DNA of 64,000 nt from Gemmatimonadales bacterium (GCA_041741375.1 JBGSKF010000095.1:41-64040), one strand, 5' to 3'. Counted from the first letter of the stretch, positions 1-27,812 are shown. Translations and numbers: made by a program. Notes: generated by a model from the letters alone, not told the origin.

Positions 1-1748
1 CGCTGTCGCTCGCGGCTGCCGCCTTCGCCTGGCTGCGACCAGCCCCGGAGCCGACGCCCCACTGGCAGACCATCGTGCTCAGCGACACCCTCGAAACTGA
101 CCTGCCGGGATCACTGCTGGCGGTCTCACCGGATGGCAGCAACATCGTCTTCCGGAAGGGGATCCAGAACTCCCCGCTCTGGCTCAAGCGCGCCGACCGC
201 CTCGACGCCACCCCGATTCCGGGGACCGAACGCGGGGCATCCGCCGTCTTCTCGCCGGATGGCGAATGGATCGCCTTCACCGCCGACCGCCAACTCAAAA
301 AGGTCCGTCCGAACGGCGGCACCTCGATGCTGCTCGCCGATTCCGCGGCGTCGCAGGAGTACACCATCGCCTGGCTCGATGACGACACGATTCTCTATCC
401 GTCGCCTGACGGGACGTCGATGCGCCGCGTCAGCGCCAGCGGCGGAGGCTACACCGTGGCGCACTCCGATTCCGCCCTGCTGGGCTATGGTCTGGTCAAC
501 GCCACGGCGCTGCCCGGATCGCGTGGCGCGCTCCTGACCGTATGCACCTCCAATTGCGCCACCAGCATCTTGAGCGTACTCGACCTCCGCTCCGGCACCC
601 TGACGGAGCTGTTGCCTGACGTCCTGAAGGGGTGGTATCTGTCGAACGGCTACCTGCTCGGCATCCGGACCGACTTCACCGCGATGGTGGCGCCATTCGA
701 TCTCGACCAGTTGACAATCACCGGCCCCGCCACGACCGTGCTGGACGGCGCCATTATCCACGCCGCCTTCCGGGCGGTGCCGCTCCTGGCCGTGTCGAGG
801 AATGGCACCCTGCTCTACGCGCGCGGCACCAGTGGAAGCGGTTCCGCCGAGTTGGTCCGCGTGAACCGGCGAGGGGAGGTGTCCCGGATCGATACCAGCT
901 GGTCGGGGGCCTTCAATTCCTTCGCGCTGGCCAGGGATGGTCGGCGGATGGCGGTCGGCACCGGTACCACCGGTGGTGGGTTGTCCATCTACCTCAAGCA
1001 GCTCGACCGTGGCGCCTTCACCCGGCTCACCTTCGGCGGGCAGGATCGCCGTCCAACCTGGTCCCCCGACGGAGGCACGGTCGCCTTCATCCGTGATTCG
1101 CTGAACGGTGGTGGCGTCTACGGCATCGCCGCCGACGGCAGTGGCAACGAGCGGCTGCTGGCGCGCCTTGATCGTCCGATCCAGGAAGTCGTCTGGTCGG
1201 CCGATGGCGAGTGGCTGGTGGTCCGCACCGACAACGGCACCGCGGGCGCCGGTGATCTGGTCGGCGTGCGCACCCACGGCGACACCGCGCAGGTCCCCCT
1301 GGTCGCATCGAGGTTCACCGAGATGCATCCGGCGCTCTCGCCGGACGGTCGCTGGCTGGCCTACATCTCCGACGAATCAGGCGCCAACGAGGTCTACGTG
1401 CGCCCCTTCCCCGCCACCTCCACCGGACGCTGGCAGGTCTCGAACGGAGGGGGCGTCTCACCGGTCTGGGGCCCCAACAGCCGGGAACTCTTCTTCATTG
1501 ACACTGGCAACCGGATGGTGGCCGCCGAGCTGCGCACTGCGACCGGGTTGGAAGTGGTCGAGCTGCGCCCACTCTTCGAGGTCCGCGGCTACACCCTCGA
1601 TGTCTTTCACCAGTCGTTCGACCTGACACCCGACGGCAACAGCTTCATCTTCATGCGCCCGCAGTCGAGCGGCGCCACGGGCGCCAAACCGACGGTGGTC
1701 CTGGTGCAGCACTGGCTCACCGACCTGGCCCGGCGACTCAAGCGGTGA
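1..1748 (+). CDS. Ser/Thr protein kinase paralog, C-terminal part only (linker + TolB-like PD40 beta-propeller); 5' end lies outside the window
   Basis: Frame 3 is open from nt 3 (LSLAAAAFAWLRPAPEPTPHWQTIVLSD...). It is collinear with the post-TM region of the complete paralogs 5664..8351 and 25134..27812 (WFRPAPPEPATHRLSIALPED). Repeated SPDG(E/R)W(I/L)A(F/Y) blade motifs. C-terminal VLVQHWLTDL matches LVENWFTEL / VFNWFTEI of the paralogs. Confidence 0.85.
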   Translation, partial: LSLAAAAFAWLRPAPEPTPHWQTIVLSDTLETDLPGSLLAVSPDGSNIVFRKGIQNSPLWLKRADRLDATPIPGTERGASAVFSPDGEWIAFTADRQLKKVRPNGGTSMLLADSAASQEYTIAWLDDDTILYPSPDGTSMRRVSASGGGYTVAHSDSALLGYGLVNATALPGSRGALLTVCTSNCATSILSVLDLRSGTLTELLPDVLKGWYLSNGYLLGIRTDFTAMVAPFDLDQLTITGPATTVLDGAIIHAAFRAVPLLAVSRNGTLLYARGTSGSGSAELVRVNRRGEVSRIDTSWSGAFNSFALARDGRRMAVGTGTTGGGLSIYLKQLDRGAFTRLTFGGQDRRPTWSPDGGTVAFIRDSLNGGGVYGIAADGSGNERLLARLDRPIQEVVWSADGEWLVVRTDNGTAGAGDLVGVRTHGDTAQVPLVASRFTEMHPALSPDGRWLAYISDESGANEVYVRPFPATSTGRWQVSNGGGVSPVWGPNSRELFFIDTGNRMVAAELRTATGLEVVELRPLFEVRGYTLDVFHQSFDLTPDGNSFIFMRPQSSGATGAKPTVVLVQHWLTDLARRLKR

Positions 1749-1951
1749 GACGGGGGAGGGGCCGAAACCAACCGGTCCAAGAGACGTCTGATCATCGCCG
1801 ACGATTTTCGATGCCCCCGCGGAGCGGGAGGGATTCGAGGTGACGGGATCCGGGGCGTTTGCCCTTTCGGTTAGATCTCCCGCCCCAAGGGTGAAGGTGG
1901 GGTGTGGGAGAGGGCTAATGCGGGGTGTAGGTGAGGGCAAGAGGCGAGGAA

Positions 1952-1987
1952 TTGACACAAATATCGTGTAACACTATTTTTGTGTCA
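1952..1987 (+). promoter_or_regulatory. Putative sigma70-like promoter for a leaderless TA transcript, overlapped by a 9-bp inverted repeat (operator candidate)
   Basis: TTGACA 1952-1957, 17-nt spacer, TATTTT 1975-1980, 6 nt, ATG 1987; no Shine-Dalgarno. TGACACAAA (1953-1961) and TTTGTGTCA (1979-1987) are exact reverse complements. AT-rich island in GC-rich DNA. Confidence 0.5.
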
Positions 1988-2229
1988 TGAAGAACGTCAC
2001 ACTCTCTCTCGACGAGGACGTCGCCCGTTGGGCCAGGATCCGCGCCGCCGAGCTCGACACCAGCGTGTCCCGGCTGCTCGCCGACCAGCTCCGCGAGATG
2101 ATGGCGCGGGACGTGGCCTACCGTGCGGCGATGCAGCGGTACCTGGCAGAGCCTCCCCGGGTTCTCCACGACACCGGTCTTCCCTACCCCTCTCGCGACA
2201 CCCTGCATGGCCGCGCCGATCTTCGTTGA
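1987..2229 (+). CDS. Ribbon-helix-helix (CopG/VapB-type) antitoxin
   Basis: 80-aa ORF. MKNVTLSLDEDVARWARIRAAELDTSVSRLLADQLREMM fits the strand + two-helix RHH pattern. Overlaps the downstream PIN gene by 23 nt. Confidence 0.75.
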   Translation: MKNVTLSLDEDVARWARIRAAELDTSVSRLLADQLREMMARDVAYRAAMQRYLAEPPRVLHDTGLPYPSRDTLHGRADLR

Positions 2230-2650
2230 CACCAATGTGCTGGTCTACGCTCGAGACGCCGCGGCCGGAGACAAGCAGGTCCAGGCTGCGGAGTGGATGA
2301 CTCTGGCCTGGAGGACCGGTCGCGGTCGGGTGAGCATTCAGGTTCTGCAGGAACTTTACGTCACGCTCACTCGCAAACTCCAGCCGGGACTCAAGCCTGA
2401 GGAGGCTCGACGGGAAGTCCGCGCGCTCCTTCCCTGGCAGCCGATCCCGGTCGATCCCGGTGTTCTGGAGAGCGCCTGGAACCTCCAGGACAGGTTCACC
2501 CTCTCGTGGTGGGATGCCCTCATCGTGGGAGCAGCCCAGGCCACACAGTGCCGCTACCTCCTGACCGAGGATCTCCAGGACGGGCAGGACCTCGATGGAC
2601 TCCTTGTCGTGAACCCCTTCCGCCACGCCCCCGATTCGCTCCCCTCCTGA
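2207..2650 (+). CDS. vapC: PIN-domain toxin (VapC family)
   Basis: ATG 2207 inside ORF 2123..2650 gives MAAPIFVDTNVLVYARD... (first acidic PIN residue). Later WWDALIVGAA and LLTEDLQDG motifs are PIN-like. Coupled to the upstream antitoxin. Confidence 0.85.
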   Translation: MAAPIFVDTNVLVYARDAAAGDKQVQAAEWMTLAWRTGRGRVSIQVLQELYVTLTRKLQPGLKPEEARREVRALLPWQPIPVDPGVLESAWNLQDRFTLSWWDALIVGAAQATQCRYLLTEDLQDGQDLDGLLVVNPFRHAPDSLPS

Positions 2651-2671
2651 CACTTTCATTCGGTCCCCCAG

Positions 2672-2712
2672 TCACCTCCTTCACACTTCACACTTCCGCC
2701 TTCACACTTCCC
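2672..2712. repeat. Dispersed intergenic repeat built from TTCACACTTC-like decamers, copy 1
   Basis: CACCTCCTTCACACTTCACACTTCCGCCTTCACACTTCC. A second copy lies at 9265..9305 (CACCTCCTTCAAACTTCGAACTTCCGCCTTCAAGCTTCC). Both sit just downstream of a toxin-type gene. Confidence 0.5.
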
Positions 2713-2734
2713 CGTCTGGCCCTTCTCCCCCCGT

Positions 2735-2765
2735 GGGGCTAACTTGTGACAGTCCACTGACATCC
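2735..2765 (+). promoter_or_regulatory. Conserved kinase-gene leader motif, copy 1
   Basis: GGGGCTAACTTGTGACAGTCCACTGACATCC. Near-identical blocks occur at 3781..3811 and 25075..25105, and TAACTTGTGACA starts 52/52/55 nt before the GTG starts at 2792, 3838 and 25134. Two TGACA half-sites lie 11 nt apart. Function is not determinable from sequence. Confidence 0.45.
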
Positions 2766-2791
2766 TCGCGTCCTGCCCATCCCGGAATCCC

Positions 2792-2989
2792 GTGAACCCA
2801 CCGGAACGCCTGAGCGCCGCCCGATCGTTGGCGTGGGCAGACGGGCAGACCATCCGCGCCCTCGAGCTGGTATGGGTTGAGCGCGATGGCCGCACCACTC
2901 CGCTGGGGATCGCGCCGGACAACTACCGGTGGCCCCGCATCTCGCCGGATGGGGGACGCCTGGTCGTGGTCTCATTGGGGATTTGGTGA
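2792..2989 (+). pseudogene. Ser/Thr kinase remnant: native start fused to a piece of the propeller region, no catalytic domain
   Basis: GTG start. MNPPERLSAA matches MNPLERLSAAL at 3838, then runs directly into LVWVERDGRTTPLG...YRWPRISPDGGRLVV (blade-like). Only 65 codons. Confidence 0.6.
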
Positions 2990-2995
2990 TATGAC

Positions 2996-3030
2996 TTGAC
3001 AGGCTCTTTCAGGATGGTCATTATAGCCTG
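2996..3030 (+). promoter_or_regulatory. Putative promoter for leaderless phd-vapC transcript
   Basis: TTGACA 2996-3001, 17-nt spacer, CATTAT 3019-3024, 6 nt, ATG 3031; no SD. Inverted repeat CAGGCT (3000-3005) / AGCCTG (3025-3030). Confidence 0.5.
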
Positions 3031-3324
3031 ATGACAACTGCTTCCGTTTCCGAGGCCAAGAACCAGCTCAGTGCCCTGCTCCGCCTCGTCCAGGCTGGAC
3101 AATCCGTGCTCATCACCGACCGGGGTATCCCGGTGGCCCGGCTCGAGCCGGTGAGGCTCGGGGTCGGTATCTCGCCGGGAGTTCTCAGCCTCGCCCAACA
3201 GGGACTGGTTCAGCTCCCCGAAGGCGAGCCCAATGCCGACTGGCTCGACCTCCCTCGTCCCGCTGTGACCTCCGGGCCCTGCGGCTCCGCCCTCCTTCTG
3301 GAGGAGCGACGCGAGGGCCGATGA
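3031..3324 (+). CDS. Phd/YefM-family antitoxin
   Basis: MTTASVSEAKNQLSALLRLVQAGQSVLITDRGIPVARLEPV is the canonical Phd/YefM N-terminal fold signature. The stop overlaps the next start (ATGA). Confidence 0.85.
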   Translation: MTTASVSEAKNQLSALLRLVQAGQSVLITDRGIPVARLEPVRLGVGISPGVLSLAQQGLVQLPEGEPNADWLDLPRPAVTSGPCGSALLLEERREGR

Positions 3325-3755
3325 GGTTCTGGGATTCCTCCGCCCTCGTCCCCCTCCTGGCACCGGAGCCGGGGACCGAGCGCATGATGATCTTGATGCG
3401 CGAGGATCCGGCGGCGGCAGTCTGGTGGACCACCCCGGTCGAATGCGCTTCCGCGCTGGCGCGACTGGCTCGCGAGAAACGGATGTCGCGCGACGATGCC
3501 ACCCTGGCCACCGGGCTCCTCGCCACCGCCACGCGGGGGTGGAGCGTGGTTCCGCCCACCGACCCCGTGCGTCACCAGGCGATGCGACTGCTCCGCCTTC
3601 ATCCCCTGCGCGCAGCTGACGCGCTCCAACTCGCCGCCGCGCTGGTTCTCGCCGAGCACGACCCGCGCACCCTCCCCTTCGTCACCCTGGATGACCGGTT
3701 GGCCCTGGCCGCGGAACAGGAGGGGTTTGAAGTGATGGGAGGAACCCCGGACTGA
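3321..3755 (+). CDS. vapC: PIN-domain toxin (VapC family)
   Basis: MRFWDSSALVPLL... (acidic residue in WDSSAL), LRAADALQLAAAL and FVTLDDRL motifs. Translationally coupled to the Phd gene. Confidence 0.85.
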   Translation: MRFWDSSALVPLLAPEPGTERMMILMREDPAAAVWWTTPVECASALARLAREKRMSRDDATLATGLLATATRGWSVVPPTDPVRHQAMRLLRLHPLRAADALQLAAALVLAEHDPRTLPFVTLDDRLALAAEQEGFEVMGGTPD

Positions 3756-3780
3756 GGGCTTCTGGCCGCTCTCCTCCCGG

Positions 3781-3811
3781 CGGGGTAACTTGTGACAGTC
3801 TCCTGACAGTC
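3781..3811 (+). promoter_or_regulatory. Conserved kinase-gene leader motif, copy 2
   Basis: CGGGGTAACTTGTGACAGTCTCCTGACAGTC. Same spacing to the GTG at 3838 as copy 1 has to 2792. Confidence 0.45.
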
Positions 3812-3837
3812 GACCTCTCGTTCATGCCCGGAGCAGT

Positions 3838-4101
3838 GTGAACCCACTGGAGCGACTGAGCGCGGCCCTCGCCGACCGCTATTCACTCGTGCGCGAGCTC
3901 GGCCAGGGTGGCATGGCGACGGTCTACCTGGCCCAGGACCTCAAGCACGACGGCAAGGTCGCGCTCAAGGTCCTGAAGCCCGAGTTGGCCGCCGTGCTCG
4001 GTGCCGAACGGTTCGTGGAGCGATATGGCCGAGACTGGTTGTGCTCCATCATTGCCGGCGCTCATTCGGGCGATGGCCGGGAAGCCGGAGGGACGGGATA
4101 G
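3838..4101 (+). pseudogene. Ser/Thr kinase N-terminal stub (first ~59 codons), truncated
   Basis: MNPLERLSAALADRYSLVRELGQGGMATVYLAQDLKHDGKVALKVLKPELAAVLGAERFV is nearly identical in pattern to residues 1-59 of 5664..8351. Homology stops near nt 4015 and the ORF runs into unrelated sequence. Confidence 0.75.
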
Positions 4102-4189
4102 CGCCTGGGGGCTGGACACGGGCACGTGGTACGATAGATTGCGCCATGTATTAATAGTATTTGCTATCACCTGGCATCAGGAGGAAACG

Positions 4190-4414
4190 GTGCCCACCGT
4201 CCAGATCAATGCCCGCATCGATCCCAGGCTCAAGCAGGTCCTTGACGAGTTCTGCCGTTCGCGCGGCCTCGTGATGAACCACTTCATTCAGGAGGCGATC
4301 CTCGACCGCCTGGAGGAATTCGAGGATATCGAGGACCTCAAGGCGATCCGCCACGAACCAACCCGTCCCCTCGCCGAGGTGCTGGCGGAGCTGAAGCGCG
4401 ATGGCGCACTATAG
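4190..4414 (+). CDS. RelB/DinJ-like (RHH) antitoxin
   Basis: GTG 4190 is preceded by AGGAGGA (4179-4185). VPTVQINARIDPRLKQVLDEFCRSRGLVMNHFIQEAILDRL is RHH-like. Overlaps the RelE gene by 14 nt. The longer ORF from 4001 would run through the kinase stub. Confidence 0.7.
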   Translation: MPTVQINARIDPRLKQVLDEFCRSRGLVMNHFIQEAILDRLEEFEDIEDLKAIRHEPTRPLAEVLAELKRDGAL

Positions 4415-4661
4415 GGTCGAGGTCAGCAGGACGGCGGAAAAACAACTGCGAAAGCTCAAGGCCCTGGACCAGGGCCGGGTCGTCCATGCCCTGATGGGGT
4501 TGGCGGACGACCCCCATCCCCCCGGCTCGCGCAGGCTGAGTGGGTATTCCGACGTCTTCCGGATCCGCGTCGGCGTGTACCGGATCCTGTACAGCGTGGA
4601 GGGTCGCCGGTTGACTGTGATCATCCTCAAGATCGGACACCGCAGGGACGTGTATCGGTGA
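4401..4661 (+). CDS. relE: RelE/ParE-family toxin
   Basis: MAHYRVEVSRTAEKQLRKL...RLSGYSDVFRIRVGVYRILYSVEGRRLTVIILKIGHRRDVYR is the hallmark RelE/StbE C-terminal pattern (YR.R.G.YR..Y......v.i..i.HR..vY). Confidence 0.85.
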   Translation: MAHYRVEVSRTAEKQLRKLKALDQGRVVHALMGLADDPHPPGSRRLSGYSDVFRIRVGVYRILYSVEGRRLTVIILKIGHRRDVYR

Positions 4662-4666
4662 GCACA

Positions 4667-4850
4667 ATGCCAGACCGCCTTTCCGCCGCCCTCTCGGGCT
4701 CGCAAGTGAGGATACTCCGCCATGAAAATTGACGCCCTCGGGGCAAGCCTTTCCGACCGCGACCGGATCGAGCGCGAGCTCGATCAGGCGGGATCGCCAC
4801 GGTCTTCCTCGCGGAGGACGGGAAGCGGAAGCGCCGAGCCCCTGGCGTCT
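4667..4850 (+). pseudogene. Two further degenerate kinase 5' ends
   Basis: ATG 4667: MPDRLSAALSGSQVRILRHEN*. ATG 4722: MKIDALGASLSDRDRIERELDQ, then after a 1-nt frame change GGIATVFLAEDGKRKRR (compare LADRYRIERELGQGGMATVYLAEDLKHKRK at 5664). The DNA-level match to 5690-5790 is obvious by eye. Confidence 0.5.
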
Positions 4851-4885
4851 GGCCGAGCCTCTCCGGCGACAGTAGATTCGACACC

Positions 4886-5158
4886 ATGAACAGGGATGTG
4901 TTGCCGGGAGCCGAGTTGGTGGAGCAGGGCCTCCGCGATCTCGACGACCATGCCGAGACCGTCGAATCGCTGCTCGTCTCGCTCGGCGCTCCCGGCCTGC
5001 GCACGCTGGGACTCCACGTGCCCGAGCCATGGGCGGAGCCCGAACTCCGGCTCTACCGGCTGCTCGCGGAGAGGCACGGTGCCGGGGCCCATGCCCGGTA
5101 CAACGCCCTCCTGCGTCGGCTGGTGAGCTTCCAGCGTGCCAGCGCATGCGCGACGTAG
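4886..5158 (+). CDS. Hypothetical small protein, possible partner of the downstream nucleotidyltransferase-fold protein
   Basis: 90-aa ORF with high third-position GC. Overlaps the next gene by 13 nt. I recognise no motif. Confidence 0.5.
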   Translation: MNRDVLPGAELVEQGLRDLDDHAETVESLLVSLGAPGLRTLGLHVPEPWAEPELRLYRLLAERHGAGAHARYNALLRRLVSFQRASACAT

Positions 5159-5667
5159 CGGATCAGGCGCGGATCGAGGCCTTCCTCACGGCGCTGGCGC
5201 GCGAGGCGACGGCCGACCTCGACGTCTATCTCGTCGGCGGCACCTCGGCCGTTCTGGTGGGGTGGCGCCCGACCACGATCGACATCGACCTGGTGATGCG
5301 CCCGGAATCGGACGCCCTGCTTCGGGCGATTCCCGTACTCAAGGAGCGGCTCCGGTTGAACGTCGAGCTCGCCTCGCCCGACCAGTTCATTCCGGTGCCT
5401 CCCGGCTGGGAGCAGCGCAGCCCGGTCATCGTCCGCATCGGGAAGGTCACCTATCACCACTACGATTTCACGGCTCAGGCGCTGGCCAAGATCGAGCGCG
5501 GTCACACTCGCGACCTGGCCGACGTCGAGGCAATGCGGGCAAGGGGACTGATCACCGGCACCGAGGTGCGGCGCCAGTTCTCCCTGCTGGAGCCGCAGCT
5601 GTATCGCTTTCCCGCCATTGACCCTCCCTCGTTCCGCCGCGCCGTGGACGCGATCTTTCCGCCATGA
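5146..5667 (+). CDS. Nucleotidyltransferase-fold protein (DUF6036-like / MNT-like)
   Basis: ATG 5146 inside ORF 5029..5667. LVGGTSAVLVGWRPTTIDIDLVM resembles the G-x-x-A...T.DIDL nucleotidyltransferase core. The stop overlaps the kinase start (ATGA at 5664). Confidence 0.6.
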   Translation: MRDVADQARIEAFLTALAREATADLDVYLVGGTSAVLVGWRPTTIDIDLVMRPESDALLRAIPVLKERLRLNVELASPDQFIPVPPGWEQRSPVIVRIGKVTYHHYDFTAQALAKIERGHTRDLADVEAMRARGLITGTEVRRQFSLLEPQLYRFPAIDPPSFRRAVDAIFPP

Positions 5668-8351
5668 TCGACCGACTTGAATCGGCCCTCGCCGACCGCT
5701 ACCGGATCGAGCGCGAGCTCGGCCAGGGTGGCATGGCCACGGTCTACCTCGCGGAAGACCTCAAGCACAAGCGCAAGGTGGCCATCAAGGTCCTCAAGCC
5801 CGAACTCGCCGCCGTGCTCGGCGCCGAGCGGTTCGTGCAGGAAATCACCACCACGGCCGCGCTCCAGCACCCCCACATCCTGCCGCTGTTCGATTCCGGC
5901 ACCGCCGACGGGTTCCTGTTCTATGTCATGCCCTATATCCAGGGCGAGACTCTGCGAAGCAAGTTGGACCGCGAAACCCAGCTCAGCGTTGAGGAGGCGG
6001 TCAAGATCACGGTCGAAGTGGCCGACGCCCTCGACTACGCTCACAGCCAGGGCGTGGTACACCGCGACATCAAACCCGAGAACATCCTGCTCCACAACGG
6101 CCGCCCGATGGTGGCGGATTTCGGCATCGCCCTGGCGGTGAGCGCCGCCGCCGGTGGCCGGATGACCGAGACGGGCCTCAGTCTCGGCACGCCGCATTAC
6201 ATGAGTCCCGAGCAGGCCACCGCGGAGAAGGAGATCACCGCCCGGAGCGATATCTACTCGCTGGGCAGCGTGCTCTACGAGATGCTCACCGGCAGTCCAC
6301 CACATGTGGGGGCATCGGCGCAGCAGATCATCATGAAGATCGTGACCGAGGAGGCCGCTTCCATCACTCGGCTCCGCCGGTCGGTGCCCCCCAATGTCGT
6401 GGCCGCCGTCGCCACCTCCCTGGAAAAGCTCCCCGCGGATCGCTTCGAGAGCGCCAAGGCATTTGCCGAGGCCCTGGCCCATCCCGAGTACCGCGGCACC
6501 ACGGCCCTTTCCCCCTCGACCCGGGGCGGTCGAAGGATGGCGCTCGCGGGATGGGGTGTGGCCGGCCTGCTCTTCGTCGCCCTCGCCTCAACCTGGTTCC
6601 GTCCCGCCCCGCCGGAACCCGCCACGCACCGCCTTTCCATCGCCCTGCCCGAAGACGCAGCCTACCAGCCGAACAACGGGGCGGAGCTCGCCGTCGCTCT
6701 CGACGGGAGCCGATTCGCCTACATCGGGGGTCCCTCGCTTCGCAATGCCTCCCTGGTGGTGCAGGAACGGGATCAGATCAGTGGCCGTGTTCTTCCCGGA
6801 GCTGGGGCCGCCATGTCACCCGCTTTCTCACCCGATGGACGGCGGATCGCCTTCCGCGACATGCGTCAGGGCACCCTGAACGTCCTTTCGCTCGATGGAT
6901 CCTCCCCTGTGACCCTGCTCGAGGCGGAAGGAGGCGGCGCCTTTGGAGTGGCCTGGTCCGATGACGGGCACATCTACTACCCCTCCCGGGAGGGAACGCG
7001 CGGCATTCTCTATCGCGTGCCCCAGGATGGCGGGGCGCCCGAACCGATCACGTCGGGTGACAGCACCCTGGGCACGGTCAGCCATATCATGCCCTTCCCC
7101 CTCCCCGGCGGGCGTGGTGTTCTCTACACCGATTGGCACGGTCCAACGCGTGCCAACGACAACTGGATCGTGGCGTGGGACGCCCGGACCCGGCGCACTG
7201 TCCGGATCATCCAGGGTCTCCAGGCCTGGTATCTGACGCCGGGGTTCCTCCTCGTCCTGCGACCCAACGGATCCGCCGTGGCGCTGCCGTTCGACACCCG
7301 GAGGCTCGTCGTCACCGGCCCCGAGACCATGGTACTCGACCAGATCGCAATCAGTACCGCCGGGACCGCCAATCTCGCCGTGTCGTCCACCGGTCTGCTG
7401 ATGTATCGCTCCGGTGCCGCCCAGGCGATCCAGCGGCTCGTGCGCCCCGTCCAGGTGGCCCGATCCGGGGAGGAACGGATCCTCGATCCGGAGTGGACCT
7501 ATACTCCGGGGTACAACGGGGGCCTCAGCCTTTCCCCGGATGACACCCGCCTCGCAGTCACCATCCATGGCGACCCGGTGGGGGACATCTGGATCAAGGA
7601 TGTGGTGCGCGGTCCCCTGACCCGGGTGACCTTCGGCAATTCGATCGTGTACCGGCCCGTCTGGATGCCGGACGGCGCCTCACTGAGCTACGTGTTCGAG
7701 GAGGGAGCGGCCAGCGGGGTTCTCCGGCGCCGAGCCGATGGCGGGGGAGAAGTGGATACGATCGTCACGTCACCCCGCACCATCGCGGAAGCGGTCTGGT
7801 CGGGGGATGGCTCCTGGCTGGTCTACCGGATCACGATCCCGAGCCGCGACATCCATGCCCTCCGGCCGGGAACCGACACCGCCGGCATCCCGGTGGTGGC
7901 GACCCCCGATTTCGACGAACGGGCGCCGACTCTCTCGCCCGATGGCCGGTGGCTGGCCTACCAGTCGGATGAGTCGGGGCGGGACGAGATCTACATCCGT
8001 CCCTTTCCCGATGTCGGGGCGGGCCGCCGCCAGGTCTCCGTGGCGGGAGGCGCGGAACCCCTGTGGGCTCACAGCGGTCGCGAGTTGTTCTACCGGTCTC
8101 CCGAGGGCCGGATGGTCGTGGTGCCGGTGTCCCCTTCCCCGACTCTCACAACAGGACGGGCGCAGCCCCTCTTCGCCGACACCGCCTATCTGCGCGCCCC
8201 CAGCTACCGCGGGTACGACGTCACGAGCGATGACCGGGCCTTCGTGATGTTGCGCATGCTCCCGGAGGACACGCGCCGGTCGTCGGGCCAGCTGATCCTG
8301 GTCGAAAACTGGTTCACCGAACTCCGCAGCCGCCTGCGGGGGCGACCCTGA
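5664..8351 (+). CDS. Ser/Thr protein kinase with TM segment and C-terminal TolB-like beta-propeller
   Basis: GQGGMATVY...VAIKVL (ATP site), HRDIKPENILL (catalytic loop), ADFGIA, SPEQ. Hydrophobic GWGVAGLLFVALAS. Many SPDGRR(I/L)A blades. 895 aa. Confidence 0.92.
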   Translation: MIDRLESALADRYRIERELGQGGMATVYLAEDLKHKRKVAIKVLKPELAAVLGAERFVQEITTTAALQHPHILPLFDSGTADGFLFYVMPYIQGETLRSKLDRETQLSVEEAVKITVEVADALDYAHSQGVVHRDIKPENILLHNGRPMVADFGIALAVSAAAGGRMTETGLSLGTPHYMSPEQATAEKEITARSDIYSLGSVLYEMLTGSPPHVGASAQQIIMKIVTEEAASITRLRRSVPPNVVAAVATSLEKLPADRFESAKAFAEALAHPEYRGTTALSPSTRGGRRMALAGWGVAGLLFVALASTWFRPAPPEPATHRLSIALPEDAAYQPNNGAELAVALDGSRFAYIGGPSLRNASLVVQERDQISGRVLPGAGAAMSPAFSPDGRRIAFRDMRQGTLNVLSLDGSSPVTLLEAEGGGAFGVAWSDDGHIYYPSREGTRGILYRVPQDGGAPEPITSGDSTLGTVSHIMPFPLPGGRGVLYTDWHGPTRANDNWIVAWDARTRRTVRIIQGLQAWYLTPGFLLVLRPNGSAVALPFDTRRLVVTGPETMVLDQIAISTAGTANLAVSSTGLLMYRSGAAQAIQRLVRPVQVARSGEERILDPEWTYTPGYNGGLSLSPDDTRLAVTIHGDPVGDIWIKDVVRGPLTRVTFGNSIVYRPVWMPDGASLSYVFEEGAASGVLRRRADGGGEVDTIVTSPRTIAEAVWSGDGSWLVYRITIPSRDIHALRPGTDTAGIPVVATPDFDERAPTLSPDGRWLAYQSDESGRDEIYIRPFPDVGAGRRQVSVAGGAEPLWAHSGRELFYRSPEGRMVVVPVSPSPTLTTGRAQPLFADTAYLRAPSYRGYDVTSDDRAFVMLRMLPEDTRRSSGQLILVENWFTELRSRLRGRP

Positions 8352-8410
8352 GGCCCGCCGTGCGACGTGCCGCCGTGTCGAACCTCGCGAAATTGACGGA
8401 GAGCCCATGC

Positions 8411-8510
8411 CCGTCATTCCCGCGCACACGGGAATCCATTTTCCTCCTGCAGCCCTCATGGCCATAAATCCCCGCTCCCCGATTTCGCGGGGACAAGCTT
8501 CGCGGGGGTG
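8411..8510. repeat. REP-like hairpin cluster
   Basis: CCGTCATTCCCGCGCACACGGGAATCCATT (8411-8440) is the near reverse complement of 11270-11298. It is followed by a TCCCCG/CGGGGA hairpin and a direct repeat TTCGCGGGG at 8484-8492 and 8499-8507. Confidence 0.55.
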
Positions 8511-8544
8511 ACGTTTGGCCGGAGATTCCTTAGGTTCCACTGAT

Positions 8545-8751
8545 ATGAGCCGCCCACGCCACGACTGGCCGATCCGGATCTTCCCCCTGGGCCAGGAGCC
8601 GAGGGATGATCTATCCGCCACGACCACCATCGAGGAGCGATTGGCGCTCGTGACAATGCTTTCGGAGCGCGGGTGGAGGCTCACGGGGAGGCCCTTTCCA
8701 GCGTATTCCCGCTCCACGATGCCGGGACAGGTCATCCGGCGGCATGAATGA
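8545..8751 (+). CDS. Hypothetical small protein upstream of a nucleotidyltransferase-fold gene
   Basis: ATG 8545 in ORF 8515..8751. Coding-like GC3. Overlaps the next start by 8 nt (ATGAATGA). No recognisable motif. Confidence 0.45.
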   Translation: MSRPRHDWPIRIFPLGQEPRDDLSATTTIEERLALVTMLSERGWRLTGRPFPAYSRSTMPGQVIRRHE

Positions 8752-9204
8752 CGACTGGCGGGATCTGCTGTCCGGCTTCCGCGCTGTGGAGGCACGGTTT
8801 CTGATCATCGGTGCCCATGCCATGGCGGTGCACGGAGTCCCTCGCGGGACGCAGGACATCGACATCTGGATTGAGCCCACCGAGGAGAACGCCCAACTGA
8901 TCTGGGCGGCCCTCTCCCGGTTCGGTGCTCCTCTGGTAGACCTTGGAATCTCGCGCGAGGACCTGCGTTCCCCGGAGAAGGTGATTCAATTGGGGTTGCC
9001 ACCCCACCGCATCGATCTCCTGTCCAGCGTCTCCGGCTCCCGGATTTCGCGGAAGCCTGGGCCCACAGGGTCGAATGCGATTTCGAAGGGGTCTCCGTCG
9101 CTTTTCTGGGACGCCAGGAGCTGATCCGGAGCAAACGGGCGGCGGGCAGACTCAAGGACCTGAGCGATCTCGAGGCCCTCGGGGAACTGCCACCCGACCG
9201 GTAA
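8744..9204 (+). pseudogene. Nucleotidyltransferase-fold protein, apparent frameshift near 9038-9040
   Basis: N-terminal 98 codons: FLIIGAHAMAVHGVPRGTQDIDIWIEP...IDLLSSVSG. The expected C-terminus PDFAEAWAHRVECDFEGVSVAFLGRQELIRSKRAAGRLKDLSDLEALGELPPDR* is in another frame and ends at TAA 9202-9204. Confidence 0.65.
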
Positions 9205-9264: not shown

Positions 9265-9305
9265 CACCTCCTTCAAACTTCGAACTTCCGCCTTCAAGCT
9301 TCCTC
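9265..9305. repeat. TTCACACTTC-type dispersed repeat, copy 2
   Basis: See 2672..2712. Preceded by GAAGTGTGAA (9256-9265), the reverse complement of the decamer. Confidence 0.5.
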
Positions 9306-9308
9306 CAT

Positions 9309-9336
9309 TGTTCATTGTTCATTGATCGTTATTCTT
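9309..9336. repeat. Tandem heptamer array (TGNTCAN), 3-4 units
   Basis: TGTTCAT TGTTCAT TGATCGT TATTCTT, ending 7 nt before the aroG start. Confidence 0.6.
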
Positions 9337-9342
9337 TCCTGA

Positions 9343-10458
<1,116 letters not shown>

Positions 10459-10521
10459 AGGTGCGGGACTCCGGGTGCGTCACTGATCACTGATCACTGA
10501 TTATTGTTCACTGTTCATGGC

Positions 10522-10556
10522 TTGGCATTGTGACCACCAATAGCCATCTTATGCCC
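10522..10556 (+). promoter_or_regulatory. Putative promoter for a leaderless phd transcript
   Basis: TTGGCA 10522-10527, 17-nt spacer, CATCTT 10545-10550, 6 nt, ATG 10557. Imperfect inverted repeat ATGGCTTGG / CCAATAGCCAT spans it. Confidence 0.4.
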
Positions 10557-10817
10557 ATGATGAAGCACCGGAAAACCGTCGGGGTCGCCGAGCTCAAGGC
10601 CCGCTTGAGTGCCTACCTTCGGGAGGCGCGGCGGGGGCGCTCGGTCACCATCTGCGACCGCGACACCCCGGTGGCCCGGCTGGTCCCCGTGGATCCTTCC
10701 ACACCCCTCATCGTGCGTGCCCGATCCTCGGCGTTTCCCTCCCTCCAGGCCGTGCCGCTGCCGCCTCCGCTCCGGCGCGGGGTGGATGCCGTGGCTCTGT
10801 TGCTCGAGGAGCGTTAG
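10557..10817 (+). CDS. Phd/YefM-family antitoxin
   Basis: MMKHRKTVGVAELKARLSAYLREARRGRSVTICDRDTPVARLVPV. The ORF is open from GTG 10530. ATG 10557 is preferred because of the promoter geometry. Confidence 0.75.
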   Translation: MMKHRKTVGVAELKARLSAYLREARRGRSVTICDRDTPVARLVPVDPSTPLIVRARSSAFPSLQAVPLPPPLRRGVDAVALLLEER

Positions 10818-11106: not shown

Positions 11107-11269
11107 CACCGGTGGTGCTGGCCCACTCACGGCAGAGGCGCGAGGGGGAATGGCCACAAGAGGCACAGAAGTCACAAGAGGCACGCCCCTCTGCGCGGAG
11201 AGGCCCACCAAGGGGAGGGAGAGGTGCTCCGGCTGGTCAGGAACCCATGCCAATGCCTGAGGAGTCACA

Positions 11270-11424
11270 AATGGATTCCCGCGTGCGCGGGGATGAACAG
11301 ATGGACCCCGGCGTTGGCCGGGGTGACGCTCCGTGAGGGTGAGGAACTCCGAGTACGTCGCTGACCAATGACCAATGACCAATGACCAATGATCAATGAT
11401 CATTGGTCACTGTTCATTGATTCA
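11270..11424. repeat. Composite repeat: two REP-like hairpin units plus 9-unit heptamer array
   Basis: AATGGATTCCCGCGTGCGCGGGGATGAAC + CAGATGGACCCCGGCGTTGGCCGGGGTGACGCTCCGTGA..., then TGACCAA x4, TGATCAA, TGATCAT, TGGTCAC, TGTTCAT, TGATTCA (11362-11424). The last unit contains the stop of the convergent gene. Confidence 0.75.
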
Positions 11425-23878: not shown

Positions 23879-24166
23879 ATGTCCGAAGAGTACTCTCTTT
23901 ACGACGCCAAGGCCAAGCTCTCTGCCCTGGTTCGCCAGGTCCGGGAGGGAAAGAGCGTGGTCATCACGGTTCATGGCGAGCCGGTGGCAGAGCTCCGCCC
24001 CTATCAGAAGCCCGAAAAGAAGCAGACGCTGGAGGAACGTGTCGCCGAGTTGACGGCACTGGGTTTGATCACTCCGGCGAGAATGAGGCCGTCGGATCCG
24101 AAGGCATTCCCCGTGGGAAAGCGCGTTCCCGGAGCCTTGAAGCGCTTCCTGGAAGACCGGGAATGA
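23879..24166 (+). CDS. Phd/YefM-family antitoxin
   Basis: (M)MSEEYSLYDAKAKLSALVRQVREGKSVVITVHGEPVAELRP. The ORF opens at ATG 23876. The stop overlaps the next start (ATGA). Confidence 0.85.
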   Translation: MSEEYSLYDAKAKLSALVRQVREGKSVVITVHGEPVAELRPYQKPEKKQTLEERVAELTALGLITPARMRPSDPKAFPVGKRVPGALKRFLEDRE

Positions 24167-24888: not shown

Positions 24889-25074
24889 GGTGGTTCCGCC
24901 CCTTTCGCGACGCGGGTTCTCGGGCATCGCCCAAGAAATTGTTGCCGTTTTGTGTTCGAATTTTGTCCGTAAGGGACTAGAGTGGGGGAGTCGGTGCGGG
25001 TCGCGGGGCTCACTCGTTGTTCATTTGCATCGATCATCGATTGGGGCGAGGCGTCTGGCCATTCACCCCCGGGC

Positions 25075-25105
25075 GGGCTAACTTGTGACACATCGCTGAC
25101 ACATC
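25075..25105 (+). promoter_or_regulatory. Conserved kinase-gene leader motif, copy 3
   Basis: GGGCTAACTTGTGACACATCGCTGACACATC, 55 nt before GTG 25134. Confidence 0.45.
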
Positions 25106-25133
25106 ATTTCCCGGCCTCCCCCCAGGGAATCCC

Positions 25134-27812
25134 GTGACCACTCTGGACCGCCTGCGCGCCGCCCTGGACGACCGCTACACCCTCGAGCGGGAACTTGGCG
25201 CGGGCGGCATGGCCACGGTCTATCTGGCCCGGGACCTCAAGCATGACCGCCAGGTGGCCCTCAAGGTGCTGCGACCGGAACTCGCCGCCGTGATTGGCGC
25301 CGAGCGCTTCCTCAGCGAGATCAAGACCACGGCGAACCTCCAGCACCCCCACATCCTCCCCCTGTTCGACTCCGGCACCGCCGATGGCACCGTCTTCTAT
25401 GCGATGCCGTTCGTCGAGGGGGAGAGTCTCCGCGATCGGATCCAGCGGGAAAAGCAGCTCCCCGTGGCGGACGCCCTGCGCATCACGACCGAGGTGGCCA
25501 GTGCCCTCGACTACGCGCACCGGAAGGGGATCGTCCACCGCGACATCAAGCCCGAGAACATCCTGCTGCACGATGGTCAGGCCCTCGTGGCGGACTTCGG
25601 CATCGCGCTGGCCGCCAGCCGGTCGGAGGGGGGGAGCCGGCTCACCGAAACCGGGATGTCGCTCGGGACACCGTATTACATGAGCCCCGAGCAGGCGATG
25701 GGAGAGCGGGAGATCGACGGCCGGACCGACATCTACGCCCTGGGCTGCGTGCTGTACGAGATGCTCACGGGAGAGCCCCCGTTCACCGGTCCCACCGCCC
25801 AGGCGATCGTCGCGCGGGTGATGACCGAGTCCCCCCGCGGTGTCTCGATCCAGCGCCACACCGTCCCTCTCCATGTGGAGCAGGCGATTGTGAGGGCGCT
25901 GGAGAAGCTCCCGGCCGACCGGTTCGCCACCGCCGCCGACTTCACGACGGCCCTCACCACACCGGGGTCGGGCACGGTATCCGCGCCGGGGCCGAGCGCT
26001 CTCCCCCGAGTGCGCCGTCGCCAGCGTGCCGTTCTCCTCGCGGCCGGAGCCGGATTGCTGGTGACGGGGACACTGCTCGGAGCCCTGTTCCGCCGAGGCG
26101 ACGCCCCCGACCCAACCGTCACCCGTCTCACCATGCTCCTCCCCGACACCCTCGGCATCCTCCCCATCGCCACCCACCGCCTGGCGATCTCGCCGGATGG
26201 ACGGCGGATCGCCTGGATCGGAGGCCCGGGCGGCCAGCCCGGCATCGTGGTCCAGGATTTCGAGCAGGCCGACCCCCGGTATCTCCCGGGAACCGAGGGA
26301 GCGAATGCGCCGTTCTTTTCCCCGGATGGCGCCACGATCGGGTTCTTCATCGGGAGAGGAGGATCCGGCAGCCTGAAGACCATTCCGGCTGCGGGCGGCG
26401 CGGCCCAGACGGTGGTGGCCAGGGGTGCCGAACCGTGGGGCGGCGATTGGTCCGCGGACGGGATGATCTACTACACGGGAACCGAGTCCCGGCTCTTCAA
26501 GGTACCCGCCACCGGCGGCGCGGCGTCCCCGGTCTCGACGATCGATTCCACCCAGCCCGGTGTGACCGAGCACGACTTCGTGGACGTCCTTCCCAACGGC
26601 AAGGGAGCAGTGGTACAGCTGTGGAAGGGCGGCGTCGGGATCAACGAGATCGGCGTCGTCTCCTTCGCAACCGGCCGGGTCACCTCCCTGGTCCGGGGCA
26701 CCTACCCAAGGTATCTGACGACGGGTCATGTCCTGTTCGGAACCTCGGACGGTCGGCTCCATCTCCTCCCCTTCGATCAGGACCGGCTGGAGGCCACGGG
26801 ACAACCAGCCGTGGTTCTCGAGGGAGTGCCGGTGGACGGCTTCACCGGGACAATGCAGTTCGCCATCTCCGACAATGGAACGTTGATCCATCAAACCCGC
26901 GAGGGAATGGGGCGCTTCATGCCATCCTGGATCGGCCGGGATGGTTCCGCCACGGTGATTGATTCCACCTGGGAGGTGTCCGGTCTGGAGGGGATCGCCC
27001 TCTCCCCGGAGGGATCCCGGGTTGCGGTCACCCAGTCCGCGACCGATGGCTCGCAGATCTGGGTCAAGACCCTCCCACGAGGGCCCTTCACCCGGCTCAC
27101 CTTCGCCGGCCCCGATACCGACCGCCCGGTCTGGTCTCCGGATGGTCGCGAAGTGGGTTTTTTGAGCCGGGTTGGCACGAATCCCCGGCTGGCCTGGGCC
27201 CAACGCGCCGATGGGAGCGGCAACGCCAGGATCGTGGCTTTTCATGCGGAAGGCATGGACGAGTTTGACTGGTCCCGAGACGGACGCTGGTTCATCGGGA
27301 GAACTTTCGGCTCCGGGGCCGGCAGCAGGCGGATCCTGGCACGGGAGGCCGGCCCCGACACCACCATGCGGGTTCTGATGGAAGGCCCCAGCGACCTGTA
27401 CACCCCCGCCCTCTCTCCCGACAGCCGGTGGCTCGCCTACGTCTCGGATGAGTCGGGGCGGGCGGAGGTGTATGTGAGGCCCTTTCCCAATGTGGAGACC
27501 GCGCGGTGGCAGGTGTCGGTGGATGGAGGGCTGGAGCCCCTCTGGAGCCGGACCGGAGATGAGTTGTTCTATCGGACGGAGCGCGGCGAGATGATGGCCG
27601 TCCAGGTGACGGCGGACGAGGCCTTCGCCAGTCAGTCCCCCGTCACGTTGTTCAACGATCCCACGGCCCTGACGAGCCCCTATCACCGCCAGTACGATAT
27701 CGCTCCGGACGGCCGGTTCCTCATGATCCGATCACTGGCCGGGAACTCGAGCCAACTCAAGGTTGTCTTCAACTGGTTCACGGAGATCCGGGAGAGATTC
27801 GGAGGCCGTTGA
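25134..27812 (+). CDS. Ser/Thr protein kinase with TM segment and C-terminal TolB-like beta-propeller
   Basis: GAGGMATVY, VALKVL, HRDIKPENILL, ADFGIA, SPEQ. Hydrophobic AVLLAAGAGLLVTGTLLGALF. SPDGRRIAW / SPDGREVGF / SPDSRWLAYVSDESGRAEVYVRPFP. Confidence 0.92.
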   Translation: MTTLDRLRAALDDRYTLERELGAGGMATVYLARDLKHDRQVALKVLRPELAAVIGAERFLSEIKTTANLQHPHILPLFDSGTADGTVFYAMPFVEGESLRDRIQREKQLPVADALRITTEVASALDYAHRKGIVHRDIKPENILLHDGQALVADFGIALAASRSEGGSRLTETGMSLGTPYYMSPEQAMGEREIDGRTDIYALGCVLYEMLTGEPPFTGPTAQAIVARVMTESPRGVSIQRHTVPLHVEQAIVRALEKLPADRFATAADFTTALTTPGSGTVSAPGPSALPRVRRRQRAVLLAAGAGLLVTGTLLGALFRRGDAPDPTVTRLTMLLPDTLGILPIATHRLAISPDGRRIAWIGGPGGQPGIVVQDFEQADPRYLPGTEGANAPFFSPDGATIGFFIGRGGSGSLKTIPAAGGAAQTVVARGAEPWGGDWSADGMIYYTGTESRLFKVPATGGAASPVSTIDSTQPGVTEHDFVDVLPNGKGAVVQLWKGGVGINEIGVVSFATGRVTSLVRGTYPRYLTTGHVLFGTSDGRLHLLPFDQDRLEATGQPAVVLEGVPVDGFTGTMQFAISDNGTLIHQTREGMGRFMPSWIGRDGSATVIDSTWEVSGLEGIALSPEGSRVAVTQSATDGSQIWVKTLPRGPFTRLTFAGPDTDRPVWSPDGREVGFLSRVGTNPRLAWAQRADGSGNARIVAFHAEGMDEFDWSRDGRWFIGRTFGSGAGSRRILAREAGPDTTMRVLMEGPSDLYTPALSPDSRWLAYVSDESGRAEVYVRPFPNVETARWQVSVDGGLEPLWSRTGDELFYRTERGEMMAVQVTADEAFASQSPVTLFNDPTALTSPYHRQYDIAPDGRFLMIRSLAGNSSQLKVVFNWFTEIRERFGGR

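Follow-up and report, generated by a model that had tools for sequence, protein, structure and literature searches.

Intact toxin-antitoxin-type modules alternate with kinase gene relics in what is probably an eroded tandem array of an uncultured Gemmatimonadales lineage

Tandem paralog arrays that evolve by birth and death hold co-directional paralogs, frameshifted and internally deleted copies and chimeric genes, and they undergo deletions between direct repeats and short gene-conversion tracts. In sedentary chromosomal integrons, toxin-antitoxin (TA) cassettes lie on the same strand, vary between close relatives and persist while neighboring DNA is lost; they have reportedly been proposed to hinder large deletions. 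Orphan toxin-immunity modules downstream of rhs and cdiA are flanked by fragments of conserved genes that give homology for recombination, and in the accretion of integrative and conjugative elements (ICEs) and cis-mobilizable elements (CIMEs) small inserted units are bracketed by direct repeats of a gene end. Traits of all these systems recur at positions 1952-5667 of a 64,000-nt stretch of DNA from a Gemmatimonadales bacterium (GCA_041741375.1 JBGSKF010000095.1:41-64040), hereafter the window. Here, four intact two-gene modules, all on the + strand, alternate with four 5′ relics of Ser/Thr kinase genes, the 5′ parts of which measure 10, 60, 9, and 38 codons in order, between a kinase gene ending at 1748 (K0) and an intact one at 5664-8351 (K5). 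The alternation was proposed in an initial annotation and proved real upon analysis by Pfam, tblastn and nucleotide alignments. The window has a G+C content of 66.6%, its nearest public relatives are Gemmatimonadales metagenome-assembled genomes (MAGs), and hot-spring and biofilm metagenomes hold near-identical sequence. A literature search found no description of TA modules interleaved with tandem receptor kinases in Gemmatimonadales.

Taken as a whole, our results make it probable that we see here the eroded end of a tandem array of a kind typical of this Gemmatimonadales lineage, with co-directional units that each consisted of a two-gene TA-type module and a receptor Ser/Thr kinase. The ancestral order would have been K0, RHH-PIN (RHH, ribbon-helix-helix), K1 together with at least one more kinase, Phd-PIN, K2, RelB-ParE, K3, K4, small open reading frame (ORF)-DUF6036, and K5. 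K1 through K4 would have shed nearly all of their coding sequence via internal, mostly illegitimate deletions that left short 5′ relics behind, plus 3′ or internal pieces where these are detectable, with all four modules remaining intact. The first ~60 kinase codons, ~83% identical in nucleotide sequence among paralogs, would make direct repeats of relics and intact genes, and homologous recombination between such repeats could remove the module between them or move short patches by gene conversion between relics and intact kinases; no dedicated recombinase would be required. Modules may have survived through selection against the loss of a TA pair, or because small genes that are intact offer little target for deletion, and long truncated kinases that keep the catalytic domain may be selected against. 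We infer the ancestral order, the direction of events and the reasons for the persistence of modules and 5′ relics.

At the sequence level, alignments show the second relic, K2-delta, to consist of codons 1-60 plus the last ~20 codons of a single kinase gene. Its 5′ part (3838-4020, + strand) was recognized by tblastn and nucleotide alignment: 3847-4020 matches intact-kinase residues 2-59 with 79% amino acid identity (E 7e-22), and 3850-4020 is 82% identical to 5670-5840 over 171 nt, in agreement with the first ~59 kinase codons originally annotated here. The 3′ part (4027-4090, + strand) holds the last ~20 codons of K2 with a 1-nt frameshift and a stop codon mutated from TAG to GAG; its counterpart in a relative, L091, is the 3′ end, stop included, of the kinase at 6062-7690. 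Window 4027-4693 as a whole equals L091 7626-8293 at 88.5% nucleotide identity. This block starts in the last ~20 codons and the stop of the L091 kinase (...RPRLVVLQNWPALFREMAGKP*), continues via the promoter, RelB and ParE, and stops 9 codons into the next kinase; since it opens in a kinase 3′ end in L091, relic 2 is two-ended. Two-ended relics were also found elsewhere, with ~17 first and ~12 last codons in L013 and 22 and 15 in L010, and one kinase of relative L001 (GCA_039794085.1) is reduced to five pieces. Short or two-ended relics lie beside non-TA genes as well, namely an amino-acid permease, an IS200-type transposase and a PALP gene.

The remaining relics are shorter at their 5′ ends. 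K1-delta (2792-2989, + strand) was annotated as a 65-codon kinase stub, and this holds for its first 10 codons (2792-2821), which are the same as at the start of an intact kinase in the 93%-identical relative L001. The rest of the ORF (2822-2989) is not 5′ sequence but a kinase propeller fragment that in several kinases corresponds to residues ~590-650 (lowest E 3e-9). No close nucleotide match to this 147-nt propeller piece was found in L001, and its interpretation as a remnant of L001's degraded kinase was rejected for lack of a nucleotide match. K3-delta (4667-4693, + strand) follows the ParE stop codon at a distance of 5 nt and comprises the first 9 codons of a kinase (MPDRLSAAL). It is marginal taken alone, yet the same relic follows ParE in L091 and L095, and in L092 an intact kinase begins exactly at the corresponding position. 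K4-delta (4722-4837, + strand) comprises kinase codons 1-38 with a frameshift near 4790; 4728-4837 matches kinase residues 2-38 by tblastn, and the relic is orthologous to the start of the kinase at 10001 of relative L002 (GCA_017973855.1). The two additional kinase starts postulated at 4667 and 4722, the latter frameshifted, were in this way recovered. We suggest that the short "kinase" ORFs at 2792, 3838, and 4722 are better marked as pseudogene relics.

Relic breakpoints were scattered, falling at codons 9, 10, 21, 22, 26, 27, 38, 44, 48, 49, and 60, so that no single site is used. This spread, the last ~20 codons in relic 2 and the propeller piece in relic 1 do not support the earlier view that kinase bodies were replaced and their 5′ ends kept. 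In a comparison of 13 paralogs, codons 18-58 were 83% identical in nucleotide sequence and the C-terminal half and 3′ end 40-50%, a difference that would make 5′ relics easy and 3′ relics hard to recognize. We therefore infer that the "5′ only" impression stems mostly from conservation: the first highly conserved stretch of the paralogs is their 5′ ~60 codons.

The first three modules fit, by gene order and predicted domains, the layout of type II TA systems, with a DNA-binding antitoxin upstream and a toxin domain downstream on one strand. Module 1 pairs an RHH-like antitoxin (1987-2229, + strand; a weak DUF6364/CcdA-like match, Pfam E 5e-4, under the curated cut-off) with a VapC-like PIN-domain toxin (2207-2650, + strand; PF01850, E 3e-13). 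Module 2 consists of a Phd/YefM antitoxin (3031-3324, + strand; PF02604, E 2e-9; TIGR01552) and a PIN-domain toxin (3321-3755, + strand; PF01850, E 1e-6) with 96% amino acid identity to its L001 counterpart. In module 3, a RelB-like RHH antitoxin (4190-4414, + strand; NF048017, E 1e-5, under the cut-off, and weak RHH matches) precedes a ParE/RelE toxin (4401-4661, + strand; PF05016, E 2.5e-11) that has 787 homologs, the closest at 95%. The antitoxin and toxin genes overlap by 23, 4, and 14 nt in modules 1, 2, and 3, respectively. Toxin-side Pfam matches were significant, and the RHH antitoxin matches were weak and below cut-offs.

Module 4 consists of a small partner ORF without a family (4886-5158, + strand) and a DUF6036 nucleotidyltransferase (5146-5667, + strand; PF19502, E 3e-6) whose stop codon overlaps the K5 start codon at 5664 (ATGA). 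The small ORF adjoins the nucleotidyltransferase in 73 of 80 metagenome loci, that is, wherever the upstream DNA is in the locus; the remaining 7 lack the upstream DNA or have a truncated nucleotidyltransferase (L066). Judged from this co-occurrence, the small ORF and DUF6036 gene are a conserved two-gene unit. One relative pairs the nucleotidyltransferase with an HTH_3 partner instead. No NCBIfam or PADLOC family matched the small ORF-DUF6036 pair, and none of the module proteins matched a PADLOC model. A further two-gene module lies in the window at 8515-8751 and 8744-9124, encoding a ~75-aa ORF and a 126-147-aa nucleotidyltransferase-like protein (weakly DUF6036). This combination recurs beside kinases in L002 (9258-9945), L009 (1449-2110), and L092 (14896-15485), and its window copy matched no Pfam, NCBIfam or PADLOC family. 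Additional Phd/YefM-like antitoxin genes occur in the window at 10572-10800 and about 23894-24007, and more PIN genes are listed for L001; TA modules seem to be abundant in the genome.

According to the initial annotation, each cassette carries its own promoter. We found sigma-70-like sites, as pattern matches, upstream of modules 1-3: at 1952-1980 (TTGACA-17-TATTTT) and 2996-3024, each 7 nt before the start codon, and at 4113-4140, ~50 nt before the start codon and conserved in L091 and L095 (all + strand). These account for three of the four such sites within 1700-5800, where 0.4 were expected; the fourth is on the minus strand. For module 4 the claim reduces to a conserved -10-like box: the predicted promoter-like site (CTGGCC-N18-TAGATT; 4849-4878, + strand) ends in a TAGAYT box 7 nt before the ATG that is kept in many relatives. 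The pattern CTGGCC-N17/18-TARAYT, considered as a general promoter class, gave a single match in the window and permits no general claim.

The initial annotation held that an unexplained process had repeatedly replaced kinase bodies while keeping kinase 5′ ends. Relatives do not support this, as they have the same modules between full-length kinases. Orthologs of K5 with ~70% identity belong to arrays in which 3 to 6 paralogs follow one another on the same strand, stop codons adjoining or overlapping the next start; arrays of this size occur in L008-L010, L091, and L092. One contig has two RelB-ParE copies, at 95% and 84% amino acid identity; the ParE stop of one overlaps the start of an intact kinase, and upstream of the other is a kinase of full length with a frameshift. 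In seven metagenome loci of the 72-84% identity group, an intact kinase begins 6-18 nt downstream of small ORF-DUF6036, in three more it does so within ~240 nt, and in four of these loci (L013, L024, L025, L027) the pair lies between two kinases. Because the same module types sit directly upstream of kinases in the arrays of relatives, the modules are, as far as gene order tells, long-term array residents and not recent replacements of kinase bodies. In the tandem arrays of uncultured Gemmatimonadales, then, TA modules stand between receptor-kinase paralogs, and stop codons often overlap the start codon that follows. Cassette content differs among close relatives.

Comparison with L001 and L002 pointed to recombination between kinase 5′ repeats. 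L001 has a single relic in place of K2-delta, RelB-ParE, K3-delta, and K4-delta; its 5′ part matches K2-delta and its 3′ part K4-delta, with the switch within CTCGCCGACCGCTA...GAGCGCGAGCTCGG. The alignment shows a K2-delta x K4-delta crossover, by which L001 would have lost RelB-ParE. Deletion in L001 is the simpler direction, because K2-delta runs 22 codons beyond the L001 relic. In L002, a K5 body continues from the first ~12 codons of K4, preceded by the spacer and the K3-delta relic (79.5% over 122 nt), and this K5 locus is without the DUF6036 module. This arrangement suggests a second, independent deletion, between K4 and K5, that would have removed small ORF-DUF6036. In addition, the window's K2-delta and L001's K5 share an identical 12-nt patch, with 7 differences (tattcactcgtg), where the K5 genes of the window and L002 read taccgRatcgag. 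The patch is a short tract of gene conversion involving a relic and an intact gene. The L002 kinase at 2909 is chimeric, its first 800 nt being 83% K5-like and the whole protein only 47% identical to K5 in amino acid sequence, and a relic-to-relic junction in L002 joins codon 44 to codon 3.

Several observations weigh against an eroded array. L002 carries a different module (a 74-aa ORF and a nucleotidyltransferase-like gene) upstream of the same 9-codon relic, for which deletion alone is insufficient. In the window, L091, and L095, RelB-ParE is followed by the 9-codon kinase tag and then by DNA that differs among the three genomes; module and tag could be moving together. Every module seen is directly upstream of a kinase start on the same strand, which erosion does not predict. 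The difference between the window and L001 at K1-delta needs more than one simple deletion, because the propeller piece is unmatched in L001. Finally, of the ~20 short relics seen, none extends beyond codon 60 of a gene of ~890 codons; we propose that detection bias, together with selection against longer truncations, would account for this ceiling.

Some of these points would be expected if modules were exchanged as cassettes by homologous recombination. The kinase 5′ ends would then serve as portable homology arms, att-like but without an integrase; a segment consisting of kinase 5′ end, module, and kinase 5′ end, or an excised circle, would enter the array or replace its units, and the relics would be scars. 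Both mappable module gains or losses have their endpoints inside kinase 5′ repeats, three genomes have three different module sets between the K2-delta and K5 orthologs, and gene conversion between relic and intact gene was observed. The RelB-ParE tag, kept despite differing downstream sequence, fits as well, as does the similarity, in L024, between the relic before small ORF-DUF6036 and the kinase after it. However, both mapped events are simpler as deletions, the 3′ end of K2-delta shows an internal deletion and not an insertion, and the codon 44-codon 3 junction in L002 is illegitimate and not homologous. Nor was a near-identical module found at two kinases of any one genome; the two same-contig RelB-ParE copies, at 95% and 84% to the query, are hence old. 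We consider such exchange unlikely on balance. A stronger form, in which the conserved first ~60 codons are a family-wide, integrase-free docking sequence through which TA modules are exchanged, lost and regained between array positions and strains, we regard as quite doubtful. If it were true, the arrays would be an integron-like reservoir of TA or defense modules coupled to fast-diversifying receptor kinases, and the relics would double as gene-conversion donors for kinase N-termini.

The close packing of modules and kinases could instead reflect function. A TA-type pair and its downstream kinase might be co-transcribed and translationally coupled in a system of three parts, or the locus might be a fast-turnover sensor or defense island with the relics as by-products. 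An ATGA stop/start overlap of toxin or nucleotidyltransferase with a kinase occurs in the window, L001, and L092, the tight module-kinase spacing is kept in the seven metagenome loci named above, and all modules are co-oriented with the kinases. The K5 kinase domain also matched the PADLOC PD-T4-6 models (E 2e-89), but the match covers residues 5-275 only, i.e., the generic Hanks kinase domain, and leaves the propeller part unmatched. Four unrelated module types before one kinase family argue against a specific partnership, and genes for an amino-acid permease, an amidohydrolase, and a beta-lactamase abut kinase starts likewise. RelB-ParE was moreover found at 83% amino acid identity in a kinase-free context (L093) and at 81% beside amidase and beta-lactamase genes in L095. 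A functional operon of this kind is improbable as the explanation of the locus.

Among the array genes just mentioned, the permease, amidohydrolase, and beta-lactamase genes overlap the next kinase start (L009 3664-3671 and 10001-10008; L095 6380-6383), which may point to operon-style coupling throughout the arrays. The RelB-ParE pair of L093 (5777-6263) is 86% identical in nucleotide sequence and lies in an unrelated context of RND efflux and glycoside hydrolase genes, and the pair is also 80% identical in amino acid sequence to a protein labelled as from a Gammaproteobacteria MAG (P0141); these two matches therefore suggest that the module may have spread horizontally. In L001, a 38-codon kinase relic is fused in frame to the small ORF of the DUF6036 module (7018-7458) to give a 146-aa ORF behind a kinase leader.

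The conserved leader itself lies upstream of the first two relics. Leader 1 (GTCTGGCC-N18-TAACTTGTGACA-N5-CTGACA; 2713-2791, + strand), identified by alignment and motif search, is 93% identical in nucleotide sequence to the leader of an intact kinase at L001 282-2915. Leader 2 (3760-3837, + strand) is a repeat 83% identical to leader 1. GGGSTAACTTGTGACA, the leader motif, is found at three places, 2736, 3782, and 25075; the third precedes an intact kinase at 25134, and 0 copies are expected by chance. The leader, ~80 nt long, was also seen at window 25055-25133, L001 190-281, and L007 6525-6620. An exact scan of 185,579 species genomes for the motif returned the L001 genome only, plus two chance matches, and the motif is thus lineage-restricted. 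An Rfam scan of the whole window gave tRNA-Leu as its sole match; the leader is therefore not a known RNA family and is possibly a lineage-specific promoter or operator.

Site-specific insertion was also considered, with the modules as integron-like cassettes or as decayed elements accreted by an integrase in kinase 5′ ends. Small, co-oriented, and variable TA modules do resemble the cassettes of sedentary chromosomal integrons, and direct repeats of a gene end resemble att duplications. The modules nevertheless have their own promoters, there are no inverted-repeat attC-like sites between them, relic breakpoints range over codons 9-60 without a common core, and the leader motif is restricted to one lineage. 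A search for attC sites as inverted repeats within 1900-5700, made with no dedicated attC model, returned only two chance-level long-range pairs. Integrase and transposase families were absent from the genes called around the kinase in L001 (~8 kb upstream, 10 kb downstream) and L002 (10 kb on each side). Within this scope, the absence of an integrase, transposase or attC-like site, noted at the outset, was upheld, and we judge accretion of this kind very improbable.

The junctions were further compared with independent metagenome assemblies. One Logan contig per run spans 19-5712 (run X1) and 1-5712 (run X2) with 0 differences and an even depth of ~44x, two further runs cover this region in pieces, and independently assembled L001 has the same junctions at 2970-3939 and 4753-8754. 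Although repeats of 80-90% identity can mislead assemblers and contigs do break at 5712-6128 (only there, within the conserved kinase domain), the zero-difference contigs of two independent runs and the junctions common to L001 make it practically negligible that the region is an assembly chimera formed via repeated kinase 5′ ends. Each junction is spanned by independent metagenome contigs and is not chimeric. Contig joints 2818->5685 and 3881->5683 were rejected as deletion variants or evidence of excision. Contigs on 2779-2822, including the one behind the 2818->5685 joint, are short pieces of other paralogs with 3 mismatches in ~44 nt, and by analogy the 3881->5683 joint may be interpreted likewise. 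The only RNA run with related words came from a different habitat, had 12% of words in common and was set aside.

K0 (75-1748, + strand) is the 3′ part, encoding the propeller domain, of a kinase paralog truncated by the window start, and matched kinase residues 302-892 by tblastn with 36% identity (E 1e-84). K5 (5664-8351, + strand) is an intact Hanks-type Ser/Thr kinase (Pkinase, E 1e-48) with a hydrophobic segment that, from its sequence, is probably membrane-spanning and a PD40/TolB-like propeller (PD40, E 3e-26). Its orthologs are 93% identical in L001, 88% in L002, and ~70% in others, and an exact-protein look-up found no record of the K5 sequence. Just after its stop, an element at 8402-8507 (inverted at 11269-11296) contains the hairpin TCATTCCCGCGCACACGGGAATC and reaches ~1300x word depth in metagenome contigs, compared with ~45x for its flanks. 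The element is a very high-copy repeat, either like repetitive extragenic palindromes (REP) or miniature inverted-repeat transposable elements (MITE), or common to many organisms. Heptamer-like repeats (CACTGAT/CAATGAC...) and a 101-nt direct repeat flank a DAHP synthase gene (9343-10458), with repeats at 9306-9348, 10417-10523, and 11295-11422 and a palindrome at 11373-11419. Between module 1 and leader 1 lies a short dispersed intergenic repeat of 39 nt (CACCTCCTTCACACTTCACACTTCCGCCTTCACACTTCC; 2673-2711, + strand; copy at 9265-9303). Its two window copies are 87% identical, and further copies lie on several other contigs of this metagenome. In the contig lay-out, 2676-2711 appeared as a dispersed repeat of 36 nt.

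The region does not reveal a new recombination machine. Read as an eroded array, it exemplifies selfish or stabilizing persistence, in that four TA-type modules are intact where ~10 kb of adjacent kinase genes would have been deleted, and it exemplifies recombination between conserved paralog ends, with crossovers mapped between genomes that are 86-93% identical. The systems described above resemble it in part. Unlike the TA cassettes of sedentary integrons, the modules have their own promoters and relic boundaries with scattered breakpoints, no attC or IntI was found in the regions searched, and loss would occur by ordinary homologous recombination. The fragments beside rhs and cdiA orphans are 3′ toxin tips that belong functionally to the flanked gene, whereas those described here are kinase 5′ ends with no known link to the TA pairs. 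In contrast to CIME/ICE accretion, no integrase was found in the regions searched, there is no common core, repeat lengths vary, and at least one "repeat" proved to be a whole gene with an internal deletion. Birth-and-death arrays, finally, differ in that here nearly every inter-kinase position has a TA-type module, and in the window these modules appear to have outlived the paralogs.

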